A stretch of DNA of 64,000 nucleotides from an uncultured Desulfobacterales bacterium (GTDB lineage Bacteria > Desulfobacterota > Desulfobacteria > Desulfobacterales > SpSt-501). Position 1 is the first letter of the stretch; each line of letters starts with the position of its first letter. Under the pieces are notes generated by a model. That model searched no databases. It was not told where the DNA came from and saw only the letters and a list, made by a program, of their open reading frames with translations. Positions 22,394 to 30,993 of this stretch are shown here, piece after piece. The stretch lies in the NCBI GenBank assembly GCA_938048455.1, contig CALIUY010000003.1:27206-91205 (forward strand). Direction: 5' to 3'. The translations under genes and the position numbers were made by a program.

Positions 22394-23797
22394 TCATTTG
22401 CGGTACTCCTCGGCGCGGATCCCGTAGCGCCGCAGGATCTGCTGCAGCGCCTGACGCTCCAGGCCGCAGCGGCGCCCCGCCTGGGTGACGTTCCCTTCGC
22501 TTTCGGCGAGCAGCCGACCGAGGAAACGGCGGTTGAACTGTTCGAGAACCGCCTGCTTGGCGCGTCGGTAGTCTTCGCCCGGCTCCGGCAGCACGGCGAG
22601 GCACTCCCCGCCGGAGACCCTCTCCCCCTGCTCCGCCCAGCCCACGTCGGCCGGTCCGATCTCCTCGGAGGCGGCGAAGGAGATGCCGCGCATGATCACG
22701 TTCTCGAGCTCGCGCACGTTGCCGCGCCACTCGTGGCGCAGGAACTGGCTCATCAGCGCCGGAGAGATCCGCTTGAGGGGCCGGTTGAGGAGCGCGCAGT
22801 GCTTTTCGAGCAGGTGGTTGGCGATCAGCGGGATGTCCTCGCGGTGCTCGCGCAGGCTGGGCTGGCGAATGGGCAGGACGTTCAGCCGGTAGAAGAAATC
22901 CTCGCGGAAGGAGCCCGCCGCGATCTTCGCCGGCAGATCCCGGTTCGTCGAGGCGACGATCCGGACATCGACCACGATCGAGCGCGTCTCCCCGAGAGGC
23001 TTGATCTCCTTTTCCTGGAGCACCCGCAGGAGTTTGGTCTGGATCGCGGGGCTGATGTCGCCGATCTCGTCGAGGAAGATCGTCCCCCCGTGCGCTTCCT
23101 GGAAGAGACCGGGGCGGTTCTCGGTGGCGTGGGTGAAAGCCCCCTTGCGGTAGCCGAAGAGCTCGCTTTCGAGGATGTTCTCGGGAACGGTGGGGCAGTT
23201 CACGGCGACAAAGGGGCCGCGGCGGCGCGGACTGAGGGCGTGCAGGGCGTGGGCGGTCAAATCCTTGCCGGTGCCGGATTCCCCGGTGATCAGCACCGTG
23301 AGGTCGGTCTGGGCGGCCATGCGGATCGTCTCGTAGAGGCGCTGCATGACCGCGCTTTTGCCGACGAGATCCTGGAAGGCGGAAAGCGGCGAACAGGCGA
23401 GCTGCAGCCGCCGGTTCTCCTGGATGAGGCTGCTGCGCTCGAGCGCCTTTTCCAGCCGCACCACCAGGGCCTCGTGCTCGAAGGGTTTGGTGATGAAATC
23501 GTAGGCGCCGCTGCGCATCGCGCGCACCGCGGTGTCGATCTCGCCGTAGGCGGTCATCATCACGACCGTCTGCTCGGGGGTTTCGCGCTTGATGATCTCG
23601 AGGAGTTCCAGCCCGTCCATGCCGGGCATCTTGATGTCGGCAAGCACGAGGTCGAAGCGCCCGGCGGACAGCCGGCGCAGGGCCTCTTCCCCGGAGGCGG
23701 CGGTCTCGACCCGGCAGTCGAGATCGGGCTCCAGGCTGCGCCGCAGCAGTTCGAGCAGGTCCTTTTCGTCGTCCACGATCAGAATCGCCCGTTTCAC
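22394..23797 (-). CDS. sigma-54-dependent response regulator (NtrC family)
   Basis: GTG 23797 overlaps the kinase stop (GTGA). Receiver domain ([13 protein letters not shown]). AAA+ domain ([29 protein letters not shown]). C-terminal Fis-type HTH. Confidence 0.9.
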
Positions 23798-25314
23798 GGT
23801 TCCTCCTCGGGCGAGGGGCCCTCGACCGGAAGCAGGACGGTGAACACCGCGCCTTCCCCGGGCCGGCTCTCCACGCGGATCTCCCCCCCGTGTCGGCGCA
23901 CGATGCCGTAGCTCACCGAGAGGCCGAGCCCCGTTCCTTCGCCGGTCGGCTTGGTCGTGAAGAAGGGATCGAAGATGAACGGGAGATCCTTCTCCTCGAT
24001 CCCGCAGCCGTCGTCGGCCACGGCGACGGCGAGTCTTCCTTCCGCCTCGTGCCAGCGCGTGGTGACCCGGATCGTTCCCTCGCCGCCCACGGCGTGACGC
24101 GCGTTCATGAGCAGGTTGAGGAGCACCTGGCGGATCTTCTTGTCGTCCACCCGCACCTCGGGGATGCGGCGGTCGAAATCCACCTCCAGCCGGACCCGCT
24201 CGTCGCCCGCGTTCTGACCGAAGAAATGGAGCACCTCCTCGATCGTGCGGTGGATGTCCACCTTTTCCTGTTTCGGCTCGGAGCGCCGGGCGAACTTGAG
24301 CAGGTCCTCGACGATCGACTTGCAGTGGCGCACGTGCTTTTCGATCGTCTTGAGGTCGCGAAAGCGGTCCGAGCCGGGGGGCTCGCCGCGGAGCAGGAGC
24401 TGGGTGTAGCCCAAAATGACCCCCAGGGGGTTGTTGATCTCGTGGGCGATCCCCGCGGAGAGCTGCCCGATCGAGGCCAGCCGGTCGGCCTGGGCCATCT
24501 GCTCCTGGAGCCGGCGGCGCTCCTCGATGTCCCGGGCGATCAGATGGACGGCGGCCCCTGCGTGGGCCTCCTCGCGGTCCCGCACGGCGCTGATCAGCGC
24601 CGGAAACGTCGTGCCGTCGGGGCGTTTGAGCTCGAGCTCCAGGTTCTGGACGAACCCGCGGCTGTCGATCGCCGCGGCGATTTCCCGCCAGGCGTCGGGC
24701 CGGGCGAGAAACCGCATCAGGGGTCGGCCTCGCAGGCGGATCGCGGCGTCTTCGCCTCCGCCCAGCAGTTTCGCCCCGGCGGGGTTGATCTCCCGGATCG
24801 CTCCGGCGGCGTCGAGGACGGCGATCGGGTCGCGCGCGACCTCGAAGATGCGGCGGTACTGCCGCTCGGAATAGGCGAGCGCCCGCGCCCGCTCTTCGGC
24901 GAGGCGCTCGAGATCGCGGTTCACCGCGAGCAGCTCGCCGTGGGCCCGGCGGAGCGCCCGGCGGTCGCGGGCGATCCGTTCCGCCGTCTTCCAGACGCGC
25001 TCGAAAAAGAGCGTGACCGCGGCAAGGGCGATGAACATGAAGGTGTTGACCGCCCCGCTGTAAGGCCGCAGGGCCTCCCACAGATCGCCGCGGTCGGCCA
25101 AAAGCAGCATCTGCCGCGCGATGTGCCCCACCGAGCGCGAAAGGGAAAAGCCGGCCAGCCCCACGCAGACCCAGAAGAGGTAGATCCACAGGAGGCTTTC
25201 GGGATCCGAGCGCCGGAGCTTTACGGCCGTCGCCAGGCTGAGAAAGGAGAGCACGATCATGGCGAGCGCGCCGCCCACGTCCACGGCGAACAGCGGCCAG
25301 AAGGGCACGGTCAC
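23794..25314 (-). CDS. PAS sensor histidine kinase with membrane-embedded N-terminus
   Basis: GTG 25314 overlaps the upstream stop (GTGA). About 4-5 TM helices without a sizeable periplasmic loop. PAS region. H-box SAGIAHEINNPL. N/G boxes LLNLLMNARHA, DDGCGI, GTGLGLS. Confidence 0.85.
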   Translation of the reverse strand: MTVPFWPLFAVDVGGALAMIVLSFLSLATAVKLRRSDPESLLWIYLFWVCVGLAGFSLSRSVGHIARQMLLLADRGDLWEALRPYSGAVNTFMFIALAAVTLFFERVWKTAERIARDRRALRRAHGELLAVNRDLERLAEERARALAYSERQYRRIFEVARDPIAVLDAAGAIREINPAGAKLLGGGEDAAIRLRGRPLMRFLARPDAWREIAAAIDSRGFVQNLELELKRPDGTTFPALISAVRDREEAHAGAAVHLIARDIEERRRLQEQMAQADRLASIGQLSAGIAHEINNPLGVILGYTQLLLRGEPPGSDRFRDLKTIEKHVRHCKSIVEDLLKFARRSEPKQEKVDIHRTIEEVLHFFGQNAGDERVRLEVDFDRRIPEVRVDDKKIRQVLLNLLMNARHAVGGEGTIRVTTRWHEAEGRLAVAVADDGCGIEEKDLPFIFDPFFTTKPTGEGTGLGLSVSYGIVRRHGGEIRVESRPGEGAVFTVLLPVEGPSPEEEP

Positions 25315-25808
25315 GGGGCGGTCTCCTCCGGCGAAGCATCCGCCGCTCGGCGGCGGAGCGCCCGCAGCCCGGCGTAGAGAAAGGCCATCGCCGGAACGCA
25401 AAGCAGGTGATCGAGCTTGGCGAGGTAGTAGAGGGGGGCGAGGATCTCCCCCCAAAGACCGGCCTCGATCCGCAGCCAGCCCGGGCCGATGCGGGAGGTC
25501 TGCACGATGCCCCAGTGCTCATCGAGCAGGTGGGCGAAAAAGGCGTCCGCGTTCCACAGGGCGAAGAAGAAGGCGGCGAGCTGGATCCGACGCCAGCCCG
25601 CCTCCCGGATCAGCCCCCGCTGCCGCAGGCGCAGGATGAGCAGCCCCATGGCGGCGAGGAAGAAGAGGTGCGCCCCCTGGTGGATGACGACACCCTCGGG
25701 GGCCCCGTGCTCCTGCACCGCACCGGCCGGCTCGGGCCAAAGGAAGAGCATCCCGCACAGGGCGGCGATCGCAAGGGCGATGCTCCGGGGTCTCAAGCAA
25801 GGAGGCAT
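25311..25808 (-). CDS. small polytopic membrane protein (165 aa), His-rich
   Basis: ATG 25808 within listed ORF 25311..26474. About 4 hydrophobic helices with conserved-looking His (HQGAHLFF, FFAHLLDEHW). Translationally coupled to the kinase. Confidence 0.55.
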   Translation of the reverse strand: MPPCLRPRSIALAIAALCGMLFLWPEPAGAVQEHGAPEGVVIHQGAHLFFLAAMGLLILRLRQRGLIREAGWRRIQLAAFFFALWNADAFFAHLLDEHWGIVQTSRIGPGWLRIEAGLWGEILAPLYYLAKLDHLLCVPAMAFLYAGLRALRRRAADASPEETAP

Positions 25809-25861: not shown

Positions 25862-26383
25862 TTACGCCGCGGCGATGCCGTCGCGGGCCCGCAGGCGCGC
25901 GATCAGGCGGGGGACAAGCCTGCGCAGCCGCCCGACGAGCAGCCGCGCGAGCAGATAGGCGACGAGAAACGCGACCCCATAGTTCATCCCTTCGGGTTTG
26001 CCGGGCAGGGGCACACCTTCGGGTGCGAAACGGGCCTGCAGCCAGTCGAGGGCGAAAAAACAGGGCCAGAGCGCGGCGGCCGAGAGGCCGAACTGGTTGA
26101 AGAACACATGCCCGAAAGCGCTGTTCGCCTGGCGGTTCAGGGCCCGGTAGCTTGCGGCGTCGCCGCGGCGCTCCGCCTCCTGCGAAAGCTGCTGGTATTT
26201 TTTCAGTTCCGCCTGGAGACGGGAAAGGTGATCGCGGTTGACCCGGGCGACGAGGCGCAGGGTGATCTCGCCGATCAGCACGACGAGCAAGGAGAGAAGA
26301 AAGGTGCCGATCGCCGCGTTCGCCGGCTCGGAGGCCGTCAGGCCGAAGAGCGGGGCGATCCAAGGGTCGAACGGGTGCGTCAT
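25862..26383 (-). CDS. membrane protein (173 aa), hypothetical
   Basis: AAGGAAAG SD-like tract upstream of ATG 26383. Hydrophobic N-terminal and C-terminal helices flank a charged coiled segment. Confidence 0.5.
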   Translation of the reverse strand: MTHPFDPWIAPLFGLTASEPANAAIGTFLLSLLVVLIGEITLRLVARVNRDHLSRLQAELKKYQQLSQEAERRGDAASYRALNRQANSAFGHVFFNQFGLSAAALWPCFFALDWLQARFAPEGVPLPGKPEGMNYGVAFLVAYLLARLLVGRLRRLVPRLIARLRARDGIAAA

Positions 26384-26477: not shown

Positions 26478-27713
26478 TCACATCGGCACCCAGGCCCGGC
26501 CGAAGAAGCCCTTGCTCAGATAGCCGACGCCCACGTAGAGGGCGAGGACGATGAAGATGAGCTTCAACCACTTGTCGGGGATGTATTTCGCGGTCCGCGG
26601 ACCGATCATCGAGCCGATGAAAATCCCGATCAGCTGGATGCCGACCAAGGTCCAGTCCATCCCCGCGCCGGCCACCTTGATGTAGGTCGTGATGCCCGTG
26701 ATCATGCTGAGCAACACGGCCAAGGCCGAGGTGCCGGCGACGACGAACATGGGCAACCCCACGATGCTCGTGAGATAGGGGACGTAAAGAAAACCGCCGC
26801 CGACCCCGATGAAGGCCGAAATCGCGGCGATGACCACCCCGCCGAAGAAAGCCGCGACCGGGTTGAAGGTGAAGTCGGTTCCGAAGAAGGTCATGGTGGA
26901 CTTGGTGAGTCCGAAGGATTTCAGGCTGACGCCCGCGGCGGCGATGTCCTTTTTTTCGCGTACGGTTTTCTCGAAGGCCTGCGCCGCGGCCTTGGCCGCC
27001 TTCTTGCTTTCCTGGCCCTTCGGGGTGAGCTCGTAGATCAGGACGAAGCCCACGACCAGCACGAACACCCCGAACCAACCCTGATACTGGCTGAAGCTCA
27101 CGCGGCCGCCGCTGATCGAAGCCGAGAGATAGGCGCCGACGATCGAGCCGATGCCGAGGGCGAGTCCGAGCGGCCAGGACATGCGGCGGGATTTGAAATA
27201 GTTGATGACGCTCAAGATGGCCGAAAGACCGACCAGGAACTGGTTCGAGGTGCGGATGCTGTCGGTCAGCGTCTTGTTGAGGCCCGGGGCGGTCTCGCGG
27301 AAGGTGCGCACCCAGTCGCCCAGCCCGTAGACGGTCATGTGCCCCACGCCGGCCATGATCCCGCCGAAAGCGCCGACGGTCGAAAAGATCCATCCCACCC
27401 AGGTGGCCCACAGAAGCGCGAGAATCCAGCTCACCTGCGGGGCCCCGGGCACGCCGAATACGCCGCGCGGCGCCGTGGGGTCGATCTGGCCCTTGCCCTT
27501 GCCCTCCGGCGCCTTGGCGATCTCCTGGCCGAGCTTGGCGGGAAGCCCGAGGTCGCTGCCCACAGCCTTGGGCTTAGGCTTGGGCGCCTCGGTCGCCGGC
27601 TGGCCTTGAGCGGCGGGCTGCTGGGCCCAGAGCGTCCCCGCCCCGAAGACGAAGACGGCTGCAGCCAGCACGAGGACGGCGACTGCTTTCGGGAAAAATC
27701 CTTTCCTGTTCAT
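26478..27713 (-). CDS. TSUP (TauE/SafE, DUF81) family anion permease with N-terminal secreted extension
   Basis: AAAGGAGGAAG RBS before ATG 27713. Signal peptide plus about 90 aa of extension. Two TSUP half-repeats with Gly-rich motifs (GAFGGIMAGVG; FIGVGGGFLYVPYL). Confidence 0.7.
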   Translation of the reverse strand: MNRKGFFPKAVAVLVLAAAVFVFGAGTLWAQQPAAQGQPATEAPKPKPKAVGSDLGLPAKLGQEIAKAPEGKGKGQIDPTAPRGVFGVPGAPQVSWILALLWATWVGWIFSTVGAFGGIMAGVGHMTVYGLGDWVRTFRETAPGLNKTLTDSIRTSNQFLVGLSAILSVINYFKSRRMSWPLGLALGIGSIVGAYLSASISGGRVSFSQYQGWFGVFVLVVGFVLIYELTPKGQESKKAAKAAAQAFEKTVREKKDIAAAGVSLKSFGLTKSTMTFFGTDFTFNPVAAFFGGVVIAAISAFIGVGGGFLYVPYLTSIVGLPMFVVAGTSALAVLLSMITGITTYIKVAGAGMDWTLVGIQLIGIFIGSMIGPRTAKYIPDKWLKLIFIVLALYVGVGYLSKGFFGRAWVPM

Positions 27714-27784
27714 CCTTCCTCCTTTCGCGATGCACCGGCCGGTGGGCCGGCGGATTGAGATGGCGGCAAACCTTCGCTCCGCTA

Positions 27785-27800
27785 AGCAAGCCTCATGCCA
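27785..27800 (-). promoter_or_regulatory. sigma-54 promoter (-24/-12) for the TSUP-kinase-regulator operon
   Basis: Minus strand reads TGGCATGAGGCTTGCT, i.e. GG-N10-GC spacing against consensus TGGCAC-N5-TTGCW. About 70-85 nt upstream of ATG 27713. Confidence 0.7.
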
Positions 27801-27917
27801 CCAGAATCAACCCGCACACCCGGAGCCGGTCCTCCGGCGGGAAGGATCGCCGGCGGGAAGATAAAATCGCCGTGGATAGAGAAAACCTGCCGAAATCAAA
27901 TAACATCATCGTCCTTG

Positions 27918-27935
27918 TGCCGCTCGACGACGGCA
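27918..27935. promoter_or_regulatory. inverted repeat TGCCG-N8-CGGCA (candidate activator site)
   Basis: Lies about 120-135 bp upstream of the minus-strand -24 element, within the divergent intergenic region. Confidence 0.25.
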
Positions 27936-28009
27936 GATGGAGCCTCGGCGGGTAAGGACGCCGGATAGGCCAGACCGGGGACGACCGGCGGATCTATGAG
28001 CAACGAATC

Positions 28010-28025
28010 GCATAAAATATTATGC
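28010..28025. promoter_or_regulatory. perfect AT-rich palindrome GCATAA-AATA-TTATGC (candidate enhancer/operator)
   Basis: 6-4-6 inverted repeat inside the only strongly AT-rich tract of this region. About 150-165 bp upstream of the plus-strand -24 element. Confidence 0.35.
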
Positions 28026-28173
28026 GCCGCAATATTAATTTTGCTCTCACTTCCCATGGTCGACGCCCGAGGGGAAAATGAAAGCCAAACAACTCAGTGT
28101 TCAACCATTCTGAAAAATTGACTTTATTTTTCGTCCGGAGTCCCCGCGCGGACCGTGGCCGTTCAGGGACTTG

Positions 28174-28189
28174 TGGTATGTTTATTGCT
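28174..28189 (+). promoter_or_regulatory. sigma-54 promoter (-24/-12) for the molybdoenzyme operon
   Basis: TGGTATGTTTATTGCT has GG-N10-GC spacing and a TTGCT -12 element. About 165-nt leader to ATG 28366. Confidence 0.7.
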
Positions 28190-28365
28190 TGATTTACTGC
28201 TTAGAAGCTCCCGCTGCCGGAAGGTCGAAGCTTTCTGCAGCCGGCGGCAGGGAATCTTGCGCGCCTGAGGAATGAGGATTCGCGTGCGCTCCCCGCGCCG
28301 CGAACGGCGGGGACGGCGCGCGTTTCGCCTTTTGAACAAACCGAACAGGGGGAGGTTTGCGGCCG

Positions 28366-30450
28366 ATGGAAAAAACCGTTTACAGCCTGTGCTTCATGTG
28401 CTCGGTGCGCTGTCCGATCCAGGTCACGGTCAAGGACGGGCAGGTGACCTTCATCCAGGGCAACCCCAAAGTCCCCGGAATCGAGGGCAGCCTCTGCCCG
28501 CGGGGTGCGGCGGGCATCGCGCTCCTCTACGACGCCCAGCGGCTGCAGTCGCCGATGATCCGCAGCGGCGAGCGCGGCTCGGGTTCCTGGCGCAAGGCGA
28601 GCTGGGAGGAGGCCCTCGACTACATCGCCGAAAAGATGAAGGCGATCGTGAAGAAACACGGCGGCCACAGCGTCGCCCTGATCGAGCGCGCCAACCTCGC
28701 CAGCCACGTGAGCAAGGCTTTTCTCAAGGCGATCGCCTCCCCCAACTATTTCTCCCACGACGCCCTCTGCAAAGGATCGGTCAACACCGCCTGCCGCTCG
28801 CTTTTCGGCTACACCGACGCCCAGATCGGGATCGACTACAAGAACACGCGCCACATCGTGCTCTACGGCCGCAACCTCTTCGAGGCCATCGCCGTGAAAG
28901 AGGTGAACCAGATGATCGAGGCCCTCGGAGCCGGGGCCAAGATGACCTGCATCGACCCGCGCGTCTCCATCACCGCCACCAAGGCCCAGCGGTACTGGAT
29001 GATCCGGCCGGGGACCGACCTCGCCCTGAACTACGCCCTGATCCACGTGATCCTGAAAGAGCGCCTCTACGACGCGGCCTATGTCGAGCGCTGGGTCCTG
29101 GGGCTGAACGAGCTGCAGGATTTCGTCCAGCCCTACACGCCGGAGTGGGCGGAGAAGGAAACCGGGATCCCCGCCGCGGAGATCGTCACGCTCGCCCGCG
29201 AGGTGAGCCGGGAAAAGCCCGCGGTGATCTTCCACTACGGCTACCGCGGGGCGCACCATGCGCACGAGATCTATCTGCGTCGCTCGATCCTGATCCTGAA
29301 CGTCCTCATGGGCAGCGTCGAGGCCAAGGGCGGGCTCTTCTTCAAGAAGGGGCCGGGCGAGGTGGGCCGCAAGCCGGCGCGCAAGCTGACCGACCAGAAA
29401 TTCCCGACGATCCAGGTGCCGCGCGCCGACAAGGTCGGGACCCCGGATTTTCCGCTCCCCGACCCGGAACACGGGGTTCCCCAGACGCTGCCGCAGGCGA
29501 TCCTGACCGAGGACCCCTACCCCTTGAAGGCCCTCTTCGCCTACCGCATGGATCCCCTCATGTCCATGCCGGACACGAACCTCACGAAAAAGGCCCTCCA
29601 GAAGCTCGACCTCGTCGTCTGCTGCGACATCAACTGGAGCGACATCGCCTGGTGGTCGGACGTCGTGCTGCCGGAGTCGGTCTTCCTCGAGCGGACCGAC
29701 TGCGTGCAACAGGCGAACGGCCAGAAGCCCCAGCTTTTCCTGCGCCGTCAGGCCGTCCCCCCCCGCTACGACACGCGCGACTGGGCGGTGATCGTAAAAC
29801 AGCTCGCCGAGCGCTTGGGCCTCGGCGACTTTTTCCCCTATCAGAACAGCGAGGAGCTCGTCCGCTGGCAGCTCGAGGGAACCGGCTTCCGCCTCGAGGA
29901 TTTCGACCCGACGGGCTTCGTCGCCTATACCGACAAGCAGATCCTCTGGGACCGGCTGGGGGGCCTCAAGCTCAAGACCCCCTCGCAGAAGATCGAACTC
30001 AAGTCCTCGCTCCTCGAGAACGCGGGCTTCGCCTCCTTTCCGCCCTACGAACCGGTGGCGGCCTACGAGGGAAACCGCTTCCGACTGATCACCGGACGGG
30101 CGGCGCTGCACACCCACGTCTCGACCCAGAACAACCCCTATCTGCACGAGCTTTTGCCCGAAAACGAGCTCTGGATCAACGCCCGGCGCGCCGCGGCCCT
30201 GGGGGTGAAGGACGGAGCGCTGGTCACGGTTTCCTCCAAGGTCGGCGCGGGGCAGATCCGCGCCCGGGTGACCGAGCACATCCATCCCGACGCCGTCTTT
30301 CTGCTGCACGGGTTCGGCCACGAGGCGGCCTTCGCCGCGCGCGCCTGCGGCCGCGGGGTCTCGGATGCGCTGCTCGAGGAAAACATCACCGACCGCGTCG
30401 GCGGGAGTCCCGCCCTGCACGACACGACCGTGACCGTCCAGCCGGTTTGA
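28366..30450 (+). CDS. molybdopterin (Mo/W-bisPGD) oxidoreductase catalytic subunit, no signal peptide
   Basis: GGGGGAGG RBS 10 nt before ATG 28366. N-terminal [4Fe-4S] motif CFMCSVRC...C starts at residue 9, leaving no room for a Tat leader. MopB-type length. Candidate Cys ligand in SHDALCKGS. Confidence 0.85.
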   Translation: MEKTVYSLCFMCSVRCPIQVTVKDGQVTFIQGNPKVPGIEGSLCPRGAAGIALLYDAQRLQSPMIRSGERGSGSWRKASWEEALDYIAEKMKAIVKKHGGHSVALIERANLASHVSKAFLKAIASPNYFSHDALCKGSVNTACRSLFGYTDAQIGIDYKNTRHIVLYGRNLFEAIAVKEVNQMIEALGAGAKMTCIDPRVSITATKAQRYWMIRPGTDLALNYALIHVILKERLYDAAYVERWVLGLNELQDFVQPYTPEWAEKETGIPAAEIVTLAREVSREKPAVIFHYGYRGAHHAHEIYLRRSILILNVLMGSVEAKGGLFFKKGPGEVGRKPARKLTDQKFPTIQVPRADKVGTPDFPLPDPEHGVPQTLPQAILTEDPYPLKALFAYRMDPLMSMPDTNLTKKALQKLDLVVCCDINWSDIAWWSDVVLPESVFLERTDCVQQANGQKPQLFLRRQAVPPRYDTRDWAVIVKQLAERLGLGDFFPYQNSEELVRWQLEGTGFRLEDFDPTGFVAYTDKQILWDRLGGLKLKTPSQKIELKSSLLENAGFASFPPYEPVAAYEGNRFRLITGRAALHTHVSTQNNPYLHELLPENELWINARRAAALGVKDGALVTVSSKVGAGQIRARVTEHIHPDAVFLLHGFGHEAAFAARACGRGVSDALLEENITDRVGGSPALHDTTVTVQPV

Positions 30451-30477: not shown

Positions 30478-30993
30478 ATGAGCCAATATTATCTCTTTCA
30501 GGACACCAAGAACTGCATCGGCTGCCATTCCTGCGAAATCGTCTGCAAGAGCCACAAGGGCCTGCCGATCGGGCCCAAGCCCTGCCAGGTGATCCATGTC
30601 GCCCCGCGCCTGGTGAACGGTCAGCCGCGCGCCTCTTATGTCTTCATGCCCTGCTTTCACTGCCAGAACCCCTGGTGCGTCGCCGCCTGCCCGACCGGCG
30701 CGATGCGCAAGCGGCCCCGGGACGGCATCGTCTACGTCGAGGCCGAGCTTTGCGTGGGCTGCAAGACCTGCATCACCGCCTGCCCCTGGGGCGCCCCGCA
30801 ATGGAATCCGGAAACCGGCAAGGCGGTCAAGTGCGACTACTGCAAGGACCGGCTCGATGCGGGGCTCAAACCCGCCTGCGTGACCGTGTGCACCACGCAC
30901 TGCCTGCACTTCGGCCGCGTGGAGGAGATGACCCGCATCCGCCGCGAGCGCCACGCGCGCACCATCGCGAGCCTGGAGAACCAGATCGGATGA
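30478..30993 (+). CDS. 4Fe-4S ferredoxin-type subunit (PsrB/DmsB/NrfC-like), cytoplasmic
   Basis: Cys groups CIGCHSCEIVC, CFHCQNPWCVAACP, CVGCKTCITACP, CDYC...C. No signal peptide. AAGGAGGGA RBS. Confidence 0.85.
   Translation: MSQYYLFQDTKNCIGCHSCEIVCKSHKGLPIGPKPCQVIHVAPRLVNGQPRASYVFMPCFHCQNPWCVAACPTGAMRKRPRDGIVYVEAELCVGCKTCITACPWGAPQWNPETGKAVKCDYCKDRLDAGLKPACVTVCTTHCLHFGRVEEMTRIRRERHARTIASLENQIG

Follow-up and report, generated by a model that had tools for sequence, protein, structure and literature searches.

In Escherichia coli, the NtrC-type regulator ZraR binds one site, located in the spacer that separates the divergent zraP unit from zraSR, and is hence autoregulated (PMC8249747). 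A related arrangement was found in the 64-kb stretch of DNA from an uncultured Desulfobacterales bacterium that was analysed here (the window), where the gap of 652 bp between a tauE gene on the minus strand and a gene for a PhsA-like molybdoenzyme subunit on the plus strand carries two back-to-back sigma-54 promoter motifs and, between them, a tandem of palindromes that is the predicted target of the NtrC-type activator encoded in the tauE operon. As at zraP and zraSR, two divergent units enclose a target, here a predicted one, of an NtrC-type regulator, and one of them is the operon of the kinase and the regulator. However, the opposite unit encodes a cytoplasmic molybdoenzyme and not a periplasmic chaperone as in E. 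coli, the sensor operon additionally contains a TauE transporter and two small membrane proteins, and the palindrome motif (GCAATA-N4-TATTGC), the phylum, and the GAFTHA loop of the activator all differ. The kinase and activator are not orthologues of ZraS and ZraR, since they fell below the equivalog cut-offs. The ZraR site itself, in the work of Leonhartsberger and co-workers from 2001, is reportedly a pair of inverted repeats.

Desulfovibrio vulgaris belongs to the same phylum as the host of the window. In this organism, the divergent operons orp1 and orp2 are switched on jointly by OrpR (DVU2106), sigma-54, and integration host factor (IHF), with the palindromes situated in the region between the operons; each promoter is separated from the activator sites by functional IHF sites (PMC3897727, PMC8359166). 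Divergent sigma-54 operons are common to both loci, and one activator acting on intervening palindromes is predicted here as well. OrpR, however, is a one-component redox sensor with its own sigma-70 promoter and negative feedback, whereas the activator described here is a response regulator encoded within one of the sigma-54 operons, implying positive feedback, and the role of IHF is a prediction. The type III secretion genes on the D. vulgaris plasmid pDV1 likewise form divergent sigma-54 operons with a common upstream region and a predicted activator motif, and the activator gene DVUA0100 resides inside one of the operons, as does the activator gene here (PMC4641369); DVUA0100 is a one-component protein, though, and its regulon and motif are unrelated.

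The architecture is already known, and the present instance is newly mapped and well supported. Because the architecture is textbook, the value of the locus is practical. The analysis defines the promoters and the tandem enhancer motif and outlines which local genes a two-component system is likely to control, and the enzyme under its predicted control is a cytoplasmic PhsAB-like molybdoenzyme that is widespread in Desulfobacterota and is found in some Nitrospirota and in Desulfofundulus genomes. A reporter driven by the control region, combined with the cognate kinase and activator, would offer a direct route to the sulfur compound that induces the system, and the promoter-specific bases together with the GAFTHA loop would provide a natural test case for the tuning of sigma-54 promoter strength.

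Divergent sigma-54 promoters

We consider that the gap functions as a bidirectional sigma-54 switch, in which one shared tandem of enhancer sites would co-induce the enzyme operon and the operon encoding its own sensor and activator. On the comparative sequence evidence given below, we assign this reading a probability of about 0.8. The elements of the control region are the following:

27785..27800, minus strand: predicted sigma-54 promoter of the tauE-sensor-activator operon, TGGCATGAGGCTTGCT (GG at 27799-27798, GC at 27787-27786)
28174..28189, plus strand: predicted sigma-54 promoter of the PhsAB-like enzyme operon, TGGTATGTTTATTGCT (GG at 28175-28176, GC at 28187-28188)
28010..28025, no strand assigned: predicted enhancer (upstream activating sequence, UAS) site A, GCATAAAATATTATGC, the weaker of the two tandem palindromes, within a block conserved in 16 loci
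28029..28044, no strand assigned: predicted enhancer (UAS) site B, GCAATATTAATTTTGC (family consensus GCAATA-N4-TATTGC), the best-conserved part of the intergenic alignment outside the promoters
28099..28123, no strand assigned: conserved block GTTCAACCATTCTGAAAAATTGACT, a candidate DNA-bending site midway between the enhancer and the plus promoter
28123-28111, minus strand: IHF-like match AGTCAATTTTTCA, with 2 mismatches to WATCAR-N4-TTR, 58 bp from the plus-promoter -24 element
27894..27906, plus strand: weak and tentative IHF-like half-match AATCAAATAACAT, with a perfect WATCAR and no 3' half (3 mismatches), ~101 bp from the minus-promoter -24 element

A preliminary description of this DNA had proposed divergent sigma-54 promoters on either side of an AT-rich island. 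Inspection of the sequence bore out the coordinates of both motifs, their exact GG-N10-GC spacing, and the island between them: the AT-rich region at 27969-28225 is the lowest-GC stretch of the whole window, reaching a minimum of 41% GC (per 150 nt) compared to 68.9% across the window, in which one other stretch falls below 48%. The minus promoter matched TGGCAC-N5-TTGCW in full, with T at the variable sixth base, and the plus promoter departed from it at one position (TGGTA for TGGCA). Both motifs are intergenic and co-oriented with genes that have good ribosome-binding sites, and the 16-mers end 72 nt from the start codon of tauE and 177 nt from that of the PhsA-like gene. Transcription from the minus promoter is predicted to start at ~27774, and the leader would thus span ~61 nt up to the tauE start codon (ATG at 27713), in front of which lies AGGAGG. 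For the plus promoter, a start at ~28200 would give a leader of ~166 nt to the ATG at 28366, preceded by GGGAGG.

Examination of the host draft genome (3.38 Mb, 66.6% GC, 64 contigs) revealed 22 sites matching TGGYAY-N5-TTGCW on both strands, compared to a composition-based chance expectation of ~5; two of the 22 are the promoters described here. All 22 end in TTGCT, and ~16 are intergenic and upstream of a co-oriented open reading frame (ORF). For matrix scoring, a first iterative refinement without constraints drifted to generic AT-rich sequence and was discarded; refinement limited to GG-N10-GC candidates, with an intergenic background, converged on 33 sites. Genes were assigned by a crude codon-usage, ORF-based caller, which left 13% of the genome as non-coding. 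When the matrix was rebuilt without the two promoters under study, the minus promoter scored 21.9 bits and the plus promoter 18.9 bits, corresponding to ranks 10 and 30 among the 80,496 GG-N10-GC candidates of the genome, both above the genomic background against which the preliminary description had wanted them scored. Scores of at least 19 bits were obtained for 4 of the 70,148 coding candidates and for 24 of the 9,467 intergenic ones; from the match rate in coding regions, ~0.5 intergenic matches would be expected. The genome contains one rpoN gene and ~30 genes for sigma-54 activators (PF00158), one of which lies in the adjacent operon.

A search with the PhsA-like protein against genome contigs returned 80 loci, mostly from Desulfobacterota and including some from Nitrospirota and Desulfofundulus, the closest of which (98% identity) is in a metagenome-assembled genome labelled Desulfatibacillum. 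In many of these loci, the genes for the enzyme are accompanied by tauE and by the module that encodes the small membrane protein, the kinase, and the activator, in an order that differs from locus to locus. The back-to-back promoter pair was recovered in 15 related loci, 14 of which have a separation of 352-455 bp and one a separation of 599 bp. Alignment of the 16 intergenic regions (the window plus these 15 loci), which range from 29% to 61% GC and are otherwise unalignable, left only four blocks that reached 75% column conservation: the minus promoter, the plus promoter, a central block (GCA..A.A.......C...GCAATA....TATTGC), and a short block between the central one and the plus promoter. 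In the related loci, the minus promoter is kept as TGGCAY-N4-CTTGCT and the plus promoter as TGGTAY-N4-ATTGCT. At the fourth base of the -24 element, 15 of 16 enzyme-side promoters have T and all 16 sensor-side promoters have C; directly in front of TTGC, 14 of 16 enzyme-side promoters carry A, compared to C in 15 of 16 on the sensor side. Because the matrix penalises T at the fourth base, site selection by the matrix does not explain the T of the enzyme-side promoters. This comparison indicates that both motifs are real sigma-54 promoters, and the differing conserved bases suggest that the two are tuned to different strengths.

Scanning of the gap revealed no sigma-70-like promoter and no terminator, in a crude scan that says little for this phylum. 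A search of Rfam with positions 27000-29000, at E-values up to 1, gave nothing relevant and so no structured RNA match in the gap or the leaders. An ORF of 41 codons at 27996-28121, overlapping sites A and B, is most likely spurious, as its start is absent and an early stop is present in the related locus L002 and stops interrupt it in L003 and L004; the sequence conservation across this interval is due to the DNA palindromes and not to the ORF.

Back-to-back sigma-54 pairs also occur elsewhere in the genome. Five further pairs, 278-607 bp apart and all outside the window, were located (contig and positions: C5:7228/7724, C12:62480/63087, C16:25601/25879, C16:23084/23388, and C51:8881/9211), and about one third of the strong sigma-54 promoters of the genome are members of divergent pairs. 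Judged by eye from the translations, the genes at the five pairs are a short-chain dehydrogenase together with a CoA-transferase-like gene, an amidohydrolase-like gene, a universal-stress-like gene together with a second TauE-like membrane protein, a radical-SAM-like gene, and PEP-CTERM-type secreted proteins. A 16-mer identical to the minus promoter TGGCATGAGGCTTGCT is found at C12:228923-228938, upstream of an unrelated, arginine-rich ORF of ~95 aa, and is probably an independent sigma-54 promoter.

The tandem palindrome and candidate bending sites

Within the AT-rich island, sites A and B form two 16-bp GCA-N10-TGC dyads whose centres are 19 bp apart, and the arms of site A extend to 7 bp (CGCATAA/TTATGCG). 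The preliminary description had pointed to two palindromes, GCATAA-N4-TTATGC at 28010-28025 and TGCCG-N8-CGGCA at 27918-27935, and both are present in the sequence. The former stands as site A; its better-conserved neighbour, site B, had been overlooked. TGCCG-N8-CGGCA was dropped as an activator site, being unconserved in L003 and even in L002, whose enzyme is 98% identical, having no fit to the enhancer motif, and being at chance level as one of 166 palindromes with five-bp arms and an N8 spacer in the window. The window likewise holds 54 palindromes with six-bp arms and 18 with seven-bp arms around N4, and since palindromes alone are not beyond chance, the significance of 28010-28025 derives from its conservation.

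An enhancer matrix was built from site B of the related loci alone and symmetrised, so that site A was not part of the training. When the entire genome was scanned, site B ranked first and the untrained site A fourth. The tandem, with a spacing of 19-20 bp, was observed at 18 places in related loci, among them eight loci that had not contributed to the training (L011, L013, L018, L021, L022, L023, L025, and L081). Where sigma-54 promoters were also detected, the tandem was located upstream of them. The tandem goes together with orthologues of the window's own NtrC-type activator, and loci whose neighbouring activator shares only ~40% identity with this protein lack it.

The centre of the tandem, at 28027, lies ~148 bp from the -24 element of the plus promoter and ~228 bp from that of the minus promoter, and the relatives keep this asymmetry (135-179 bp to the plus promoter, mostly 221-250 bp to the minus promoter). 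The earlier expectation of an enhancer 120-165 bp from each -24 element does not apply to the minus promoter, which, once TGCCG-N8-CGGCA is dropped, has no such site at 120-135 bp and would be served by the same tandem from ~228 bp. The distances showed no obvious helical phasing when judged by eye. When the gap was scanned for further instances of the enhancer motif, none was found, and the next-best score was 3.2 bits. The two operons of L022 do not diverge, and separate tandems are present there in the upstream region of the enzyme genes and at the tauE promoter; L013 and L023 carry a tandem upstream of the tauE promoter, and L056 has two sites there, 89 bp apart. The single motif cluster in the gap, together with the separate clusters in L022 and the tauE-side sites of the other loci, supports the use of one tandem by both promoters, for which there is good indirect evidence from the sequence comparison.

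In the genome-wide scan, the second-best match to the enhancer motif was GCAATTATCATATTGC at C12:290292-290331, with a weaker match 24 bp away. The activator may have a further target here, or the match may have arisen by chance in AT-rich DNA.

The IHF-type bend that had been proposed for the A/T tracts received moderate statistical support on the plus side. The plus-side IHF-like site recurs at the same position in L002 and L003, and 14 of the 16 loci had a match with no more than 2 mismatches in the central part of the plus-side segment, compared to 9.0 +/- 1.7 in shuffles. On the minus side, the proposal was weakly supported: the half-match AATCAAATAACAT is kept in L002 and L003 only, and seven distant loci have better IHF matches, 60-73 bp from the -24 element of the minus promoter. 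Four genes of the HU/IHF family (PF00216) are present in the genome. Help from IHF is plausible at the plus promoter and unproven at the minus promoter.

Proposed switch and alternative explanations

Beyond the existence and conservation of the sites, we infer the steps of the switch from what is known of this class of activators. A membrane PAS kinase, probably together with two small membrane proteins, would phosphorylate the NtrC-type activator, dimers of which would occupy sites A and B and assemble into an active AAA+ ring. Looping of the DNA would bring the ring into contact with sigma-54 holoenzyme at either promoter, probably aided on the plus side by an IHF-type bend at 28099-28123, and ATP hydrolysis would drive promoter opening. 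In this way, one enhancer would induce both operons, namely that of the PhsAB-like molybdoenzyme with its NAD(P)H- and ferredoxin-type electron modules and that of tauE, membrane protein, kinase, and activator. As the kinase and activator genes belong to the minus operon, the arrangement would result in positive autoregulation. In L074, the minus promoter is directly upstream of the genes for the small membrane protein, the kinase, and the activator, and this arrangement makes autoregulation look ancestral. Genome-wide motif statistics and phylogenetic footprinting in the 15 related loci lend support both to the original proposal of divergent sigma-54 promoters with an enhancer in the island and to the idea that a single control region serves the sensor and enzyme operons, implying autoregulation.

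Several points weigh against this interpretation. The minus promoter is ~228 bp from the tandem, and an additional site found in five distant relatives is missing in the window: in L008, L017, L045, L054, and L074, a third enhancer-type palindrome lies 84-90 bp from site B and ~142-170 bp from the minus -24 element, which gives each promoter a proximal site. It is absent from the window and from the closest relatives, which lost it or never had it, and activation of the minus promoter could be weaker here or reliant on something else. Enrichment of IHF-like matches on the minus side across the 16 loci was not significant. The sigma-54 matrix is partly circular, having been trained on intergenic matches of the same genome; leaving out the tested promoters and using coding regions as the null mitigate this, and the matrix is not an independent one. 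The sigma-54 contact loop of the activator (residues 219-224) reads GAFTHA and not the canonical GAFTGA. Finally, an activator gene that is transcribed solely from a promoter dependent on its own product must have some basal expression, and a crude scan of the minus operon revealed no internal promoter-like site, which leaves basal expression of the activator unexplained.

The asymmetric distances of 148 bp and 228 bp would also be compatible with a tandem that serves the nearer plus promoter only, the minus promoter being driven by another of the ~30 activators or from an unrecognised site within 27800-28000. In line with this, the extra site of the five relatives, ~150 bp from the minus promoter, is missing here, and L002 and L003 keep the CCGGCGGGAAGGA direct repeats (27834-27862) that the window has 35-63 bp upstream of the minus -24 element. 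The left half of the gap is otherwise unconserved beyond the closest relatives, however, the minus-side distance of 221-250 bp is conserved in most loci, and the tauE-side promoters of non-divergent loci carry sites with the same motif. NtrC-class activators work over such distances, and we regard a tandem restricted to the plus promoter as unlikely. It is also conceivable that the palindromes bind another factor, such as a repressor or a nucleoid protein, or that they belong to basal sigma-70 promoters. AT-rich DNA attracts nucleoid proteins, and the Fis-type helix-turn-helix (HTH) of the activator remained below the Pfam cut-off (19.7 compared to 22 bits). This explanation appears improbable, given that the motif tracks orthologues of the activator and is absent beside activators of ~40% identity, that no sigma-70-like promoter was detected in the gap, and that GCA-N10-TGC dyads in tandem, 130-190 bp upstream of a -24 element, are typical enhancers of the NtrC family.

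That both promoter motifs are non-functional chance matches in an AT-rich spacer would be in keeping with the sheer abundance of bare GG-N10-GC in the genome, but is very unlikely considering the ranks obtained with the leave-out matrix, the excess of intergenic matches of at least 19 bits, and the retention of both sites in position and orientation in 15 diverged loci. The bidirectional switch is therefore the reading that we retain, and within it the altered loop deserves attention. Orthologues of the activator have GAFTHA, GAFTNA, GAFTSA, or GAFTDA, and more distant neighbours have GAFTGA. Five other activators of the genome also have an altered loop, four of them with a residue other than glycine (GAFTDA in two, GAYTDA, and GAFTEA) and one changed elsewhere (GAFTGS). 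As a speculation that we hold to be rather unlikely, the activator family in which the second glycine of the loop is replaced (GAFT[H/N/S/D]A) might be co-adapted with its two promoters. If so, one enhancer would operate a built-in hierarchy of promoters differing in the stability of their closed complexes or in sensitivity to the variant loop, and the sensor/transporter and enzyme operons would respond at different levels of the activator.

The two operons and a possible inducing signal

The sensor operon, in the order of transcription, consists of the following genes:

26478..27713, minus strand: TauE/SafE (TSUP) membrane transporter, 411 aa, first gene (Pfam PF01925, E 3e-27)
25862..26383, minus strand: membrane protein of 173 aa with no family match
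25311..25808, minus strand: membrane protein of 165 aa; its stop overlaps the GTG start of the kinase gene
23794..25314, minus strand: PAS histidine kinase, AtoS/ZraS-like; the start is probably the GTG at 25314
22394..23797, minus strand: NtrC-type sigma-54 activator, 467 aa, with receiver domain, AAA+ domain, and Fis-type HTH

The genes for the 165-aa protein, the kinase, and the activator are joined by GTGA start/stop overlaps. In many loci, the gene for the 165-aa protein is directly upstream of the kinase gene regardless of where tauE and the enzyme genes are located, and this membrane protein may take part in sensing alongside the kinase, in which no periplasmic domain is obvious. Kinase and activator score well against the models for ZraS and ZraR, yet below their cut-offs. 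A search for paralogues in the genome gave none for tauE or the 165-aa protein and none above 30% identity for the PhsA-like gene.

The enzyme operon comprises four genes:

28366..30450, plus strand: catalytic subunit with molybdenum/tungsten bis(pyranopterin guanine dinucleotide) (Mo/W-bisPGD), 694 aa, nearest family PhsA thiosulfate reductase (620 bits, cut-off 694)
30478..30993, plus strand: four-cluster ferredoxin subunit (PhsB/DmsB-like), 171 aa
31025..33184, plus strand: GltD-like FAD/NAD(P)H iron-sulfur oxidoreductase, 719 aa
33400..34209, plus strand: [2Fe-2S] plus 2x[4Fe-4S] protein (start coordinate approximate)

Because the alignment to the PhsA profile begins at position 41, the catalytic subunit is read as having no twin-arginine translocation (Tat) leader. 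In the leader of this operon, a GC-rich hairpin (CGCGTGCGCTCCCCGC / GCGGGGACGGCGCGCG) followed by TTTCGCCTTTT occupies 28281-28333 and resembles a terminator or attenuator. Folding of the 166-nt leader was no better than that of shuffles (z = -1.3), and since only ~60 nt separate the promoter from the start codon in L003, the hairpin is not conserved.

During thiosulfate disproportionation in Dissulfuribacter thermophilus, the levels of a cytoplasmic PhsAB-like complex go up, as do those of a TauE/SafE protein and of a co-occurring membrane protein (PMC13490349). Recent proteomics implicates PhsAB-like enzymes in this process, their substrate and physiological role being unsettled, and the regulation of the complex does not seem to be described there (PMC13490349). 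By analogy, thiosulfate, sulfite, or another sulfur oxyanion may be the signal that induces the switch; no other step of the proposal is less certain, and we offer it tentatively and with some doubt. The PhsAB-like complex of the sulfur-disproportionating Desulfobacterota Dissulfuribacter thermophilus and Desulfolithobacter dissulfuricans resembles the enzyme of the window in having a PhsA-like catalytic subunit that lacks a Tat leader, an iron-sulfur subunit, and no membrane anchor (PMC13490349), and compared to that complex, the operon described here adds the GltD-like and [2Fe-2S] electron-input subunits.

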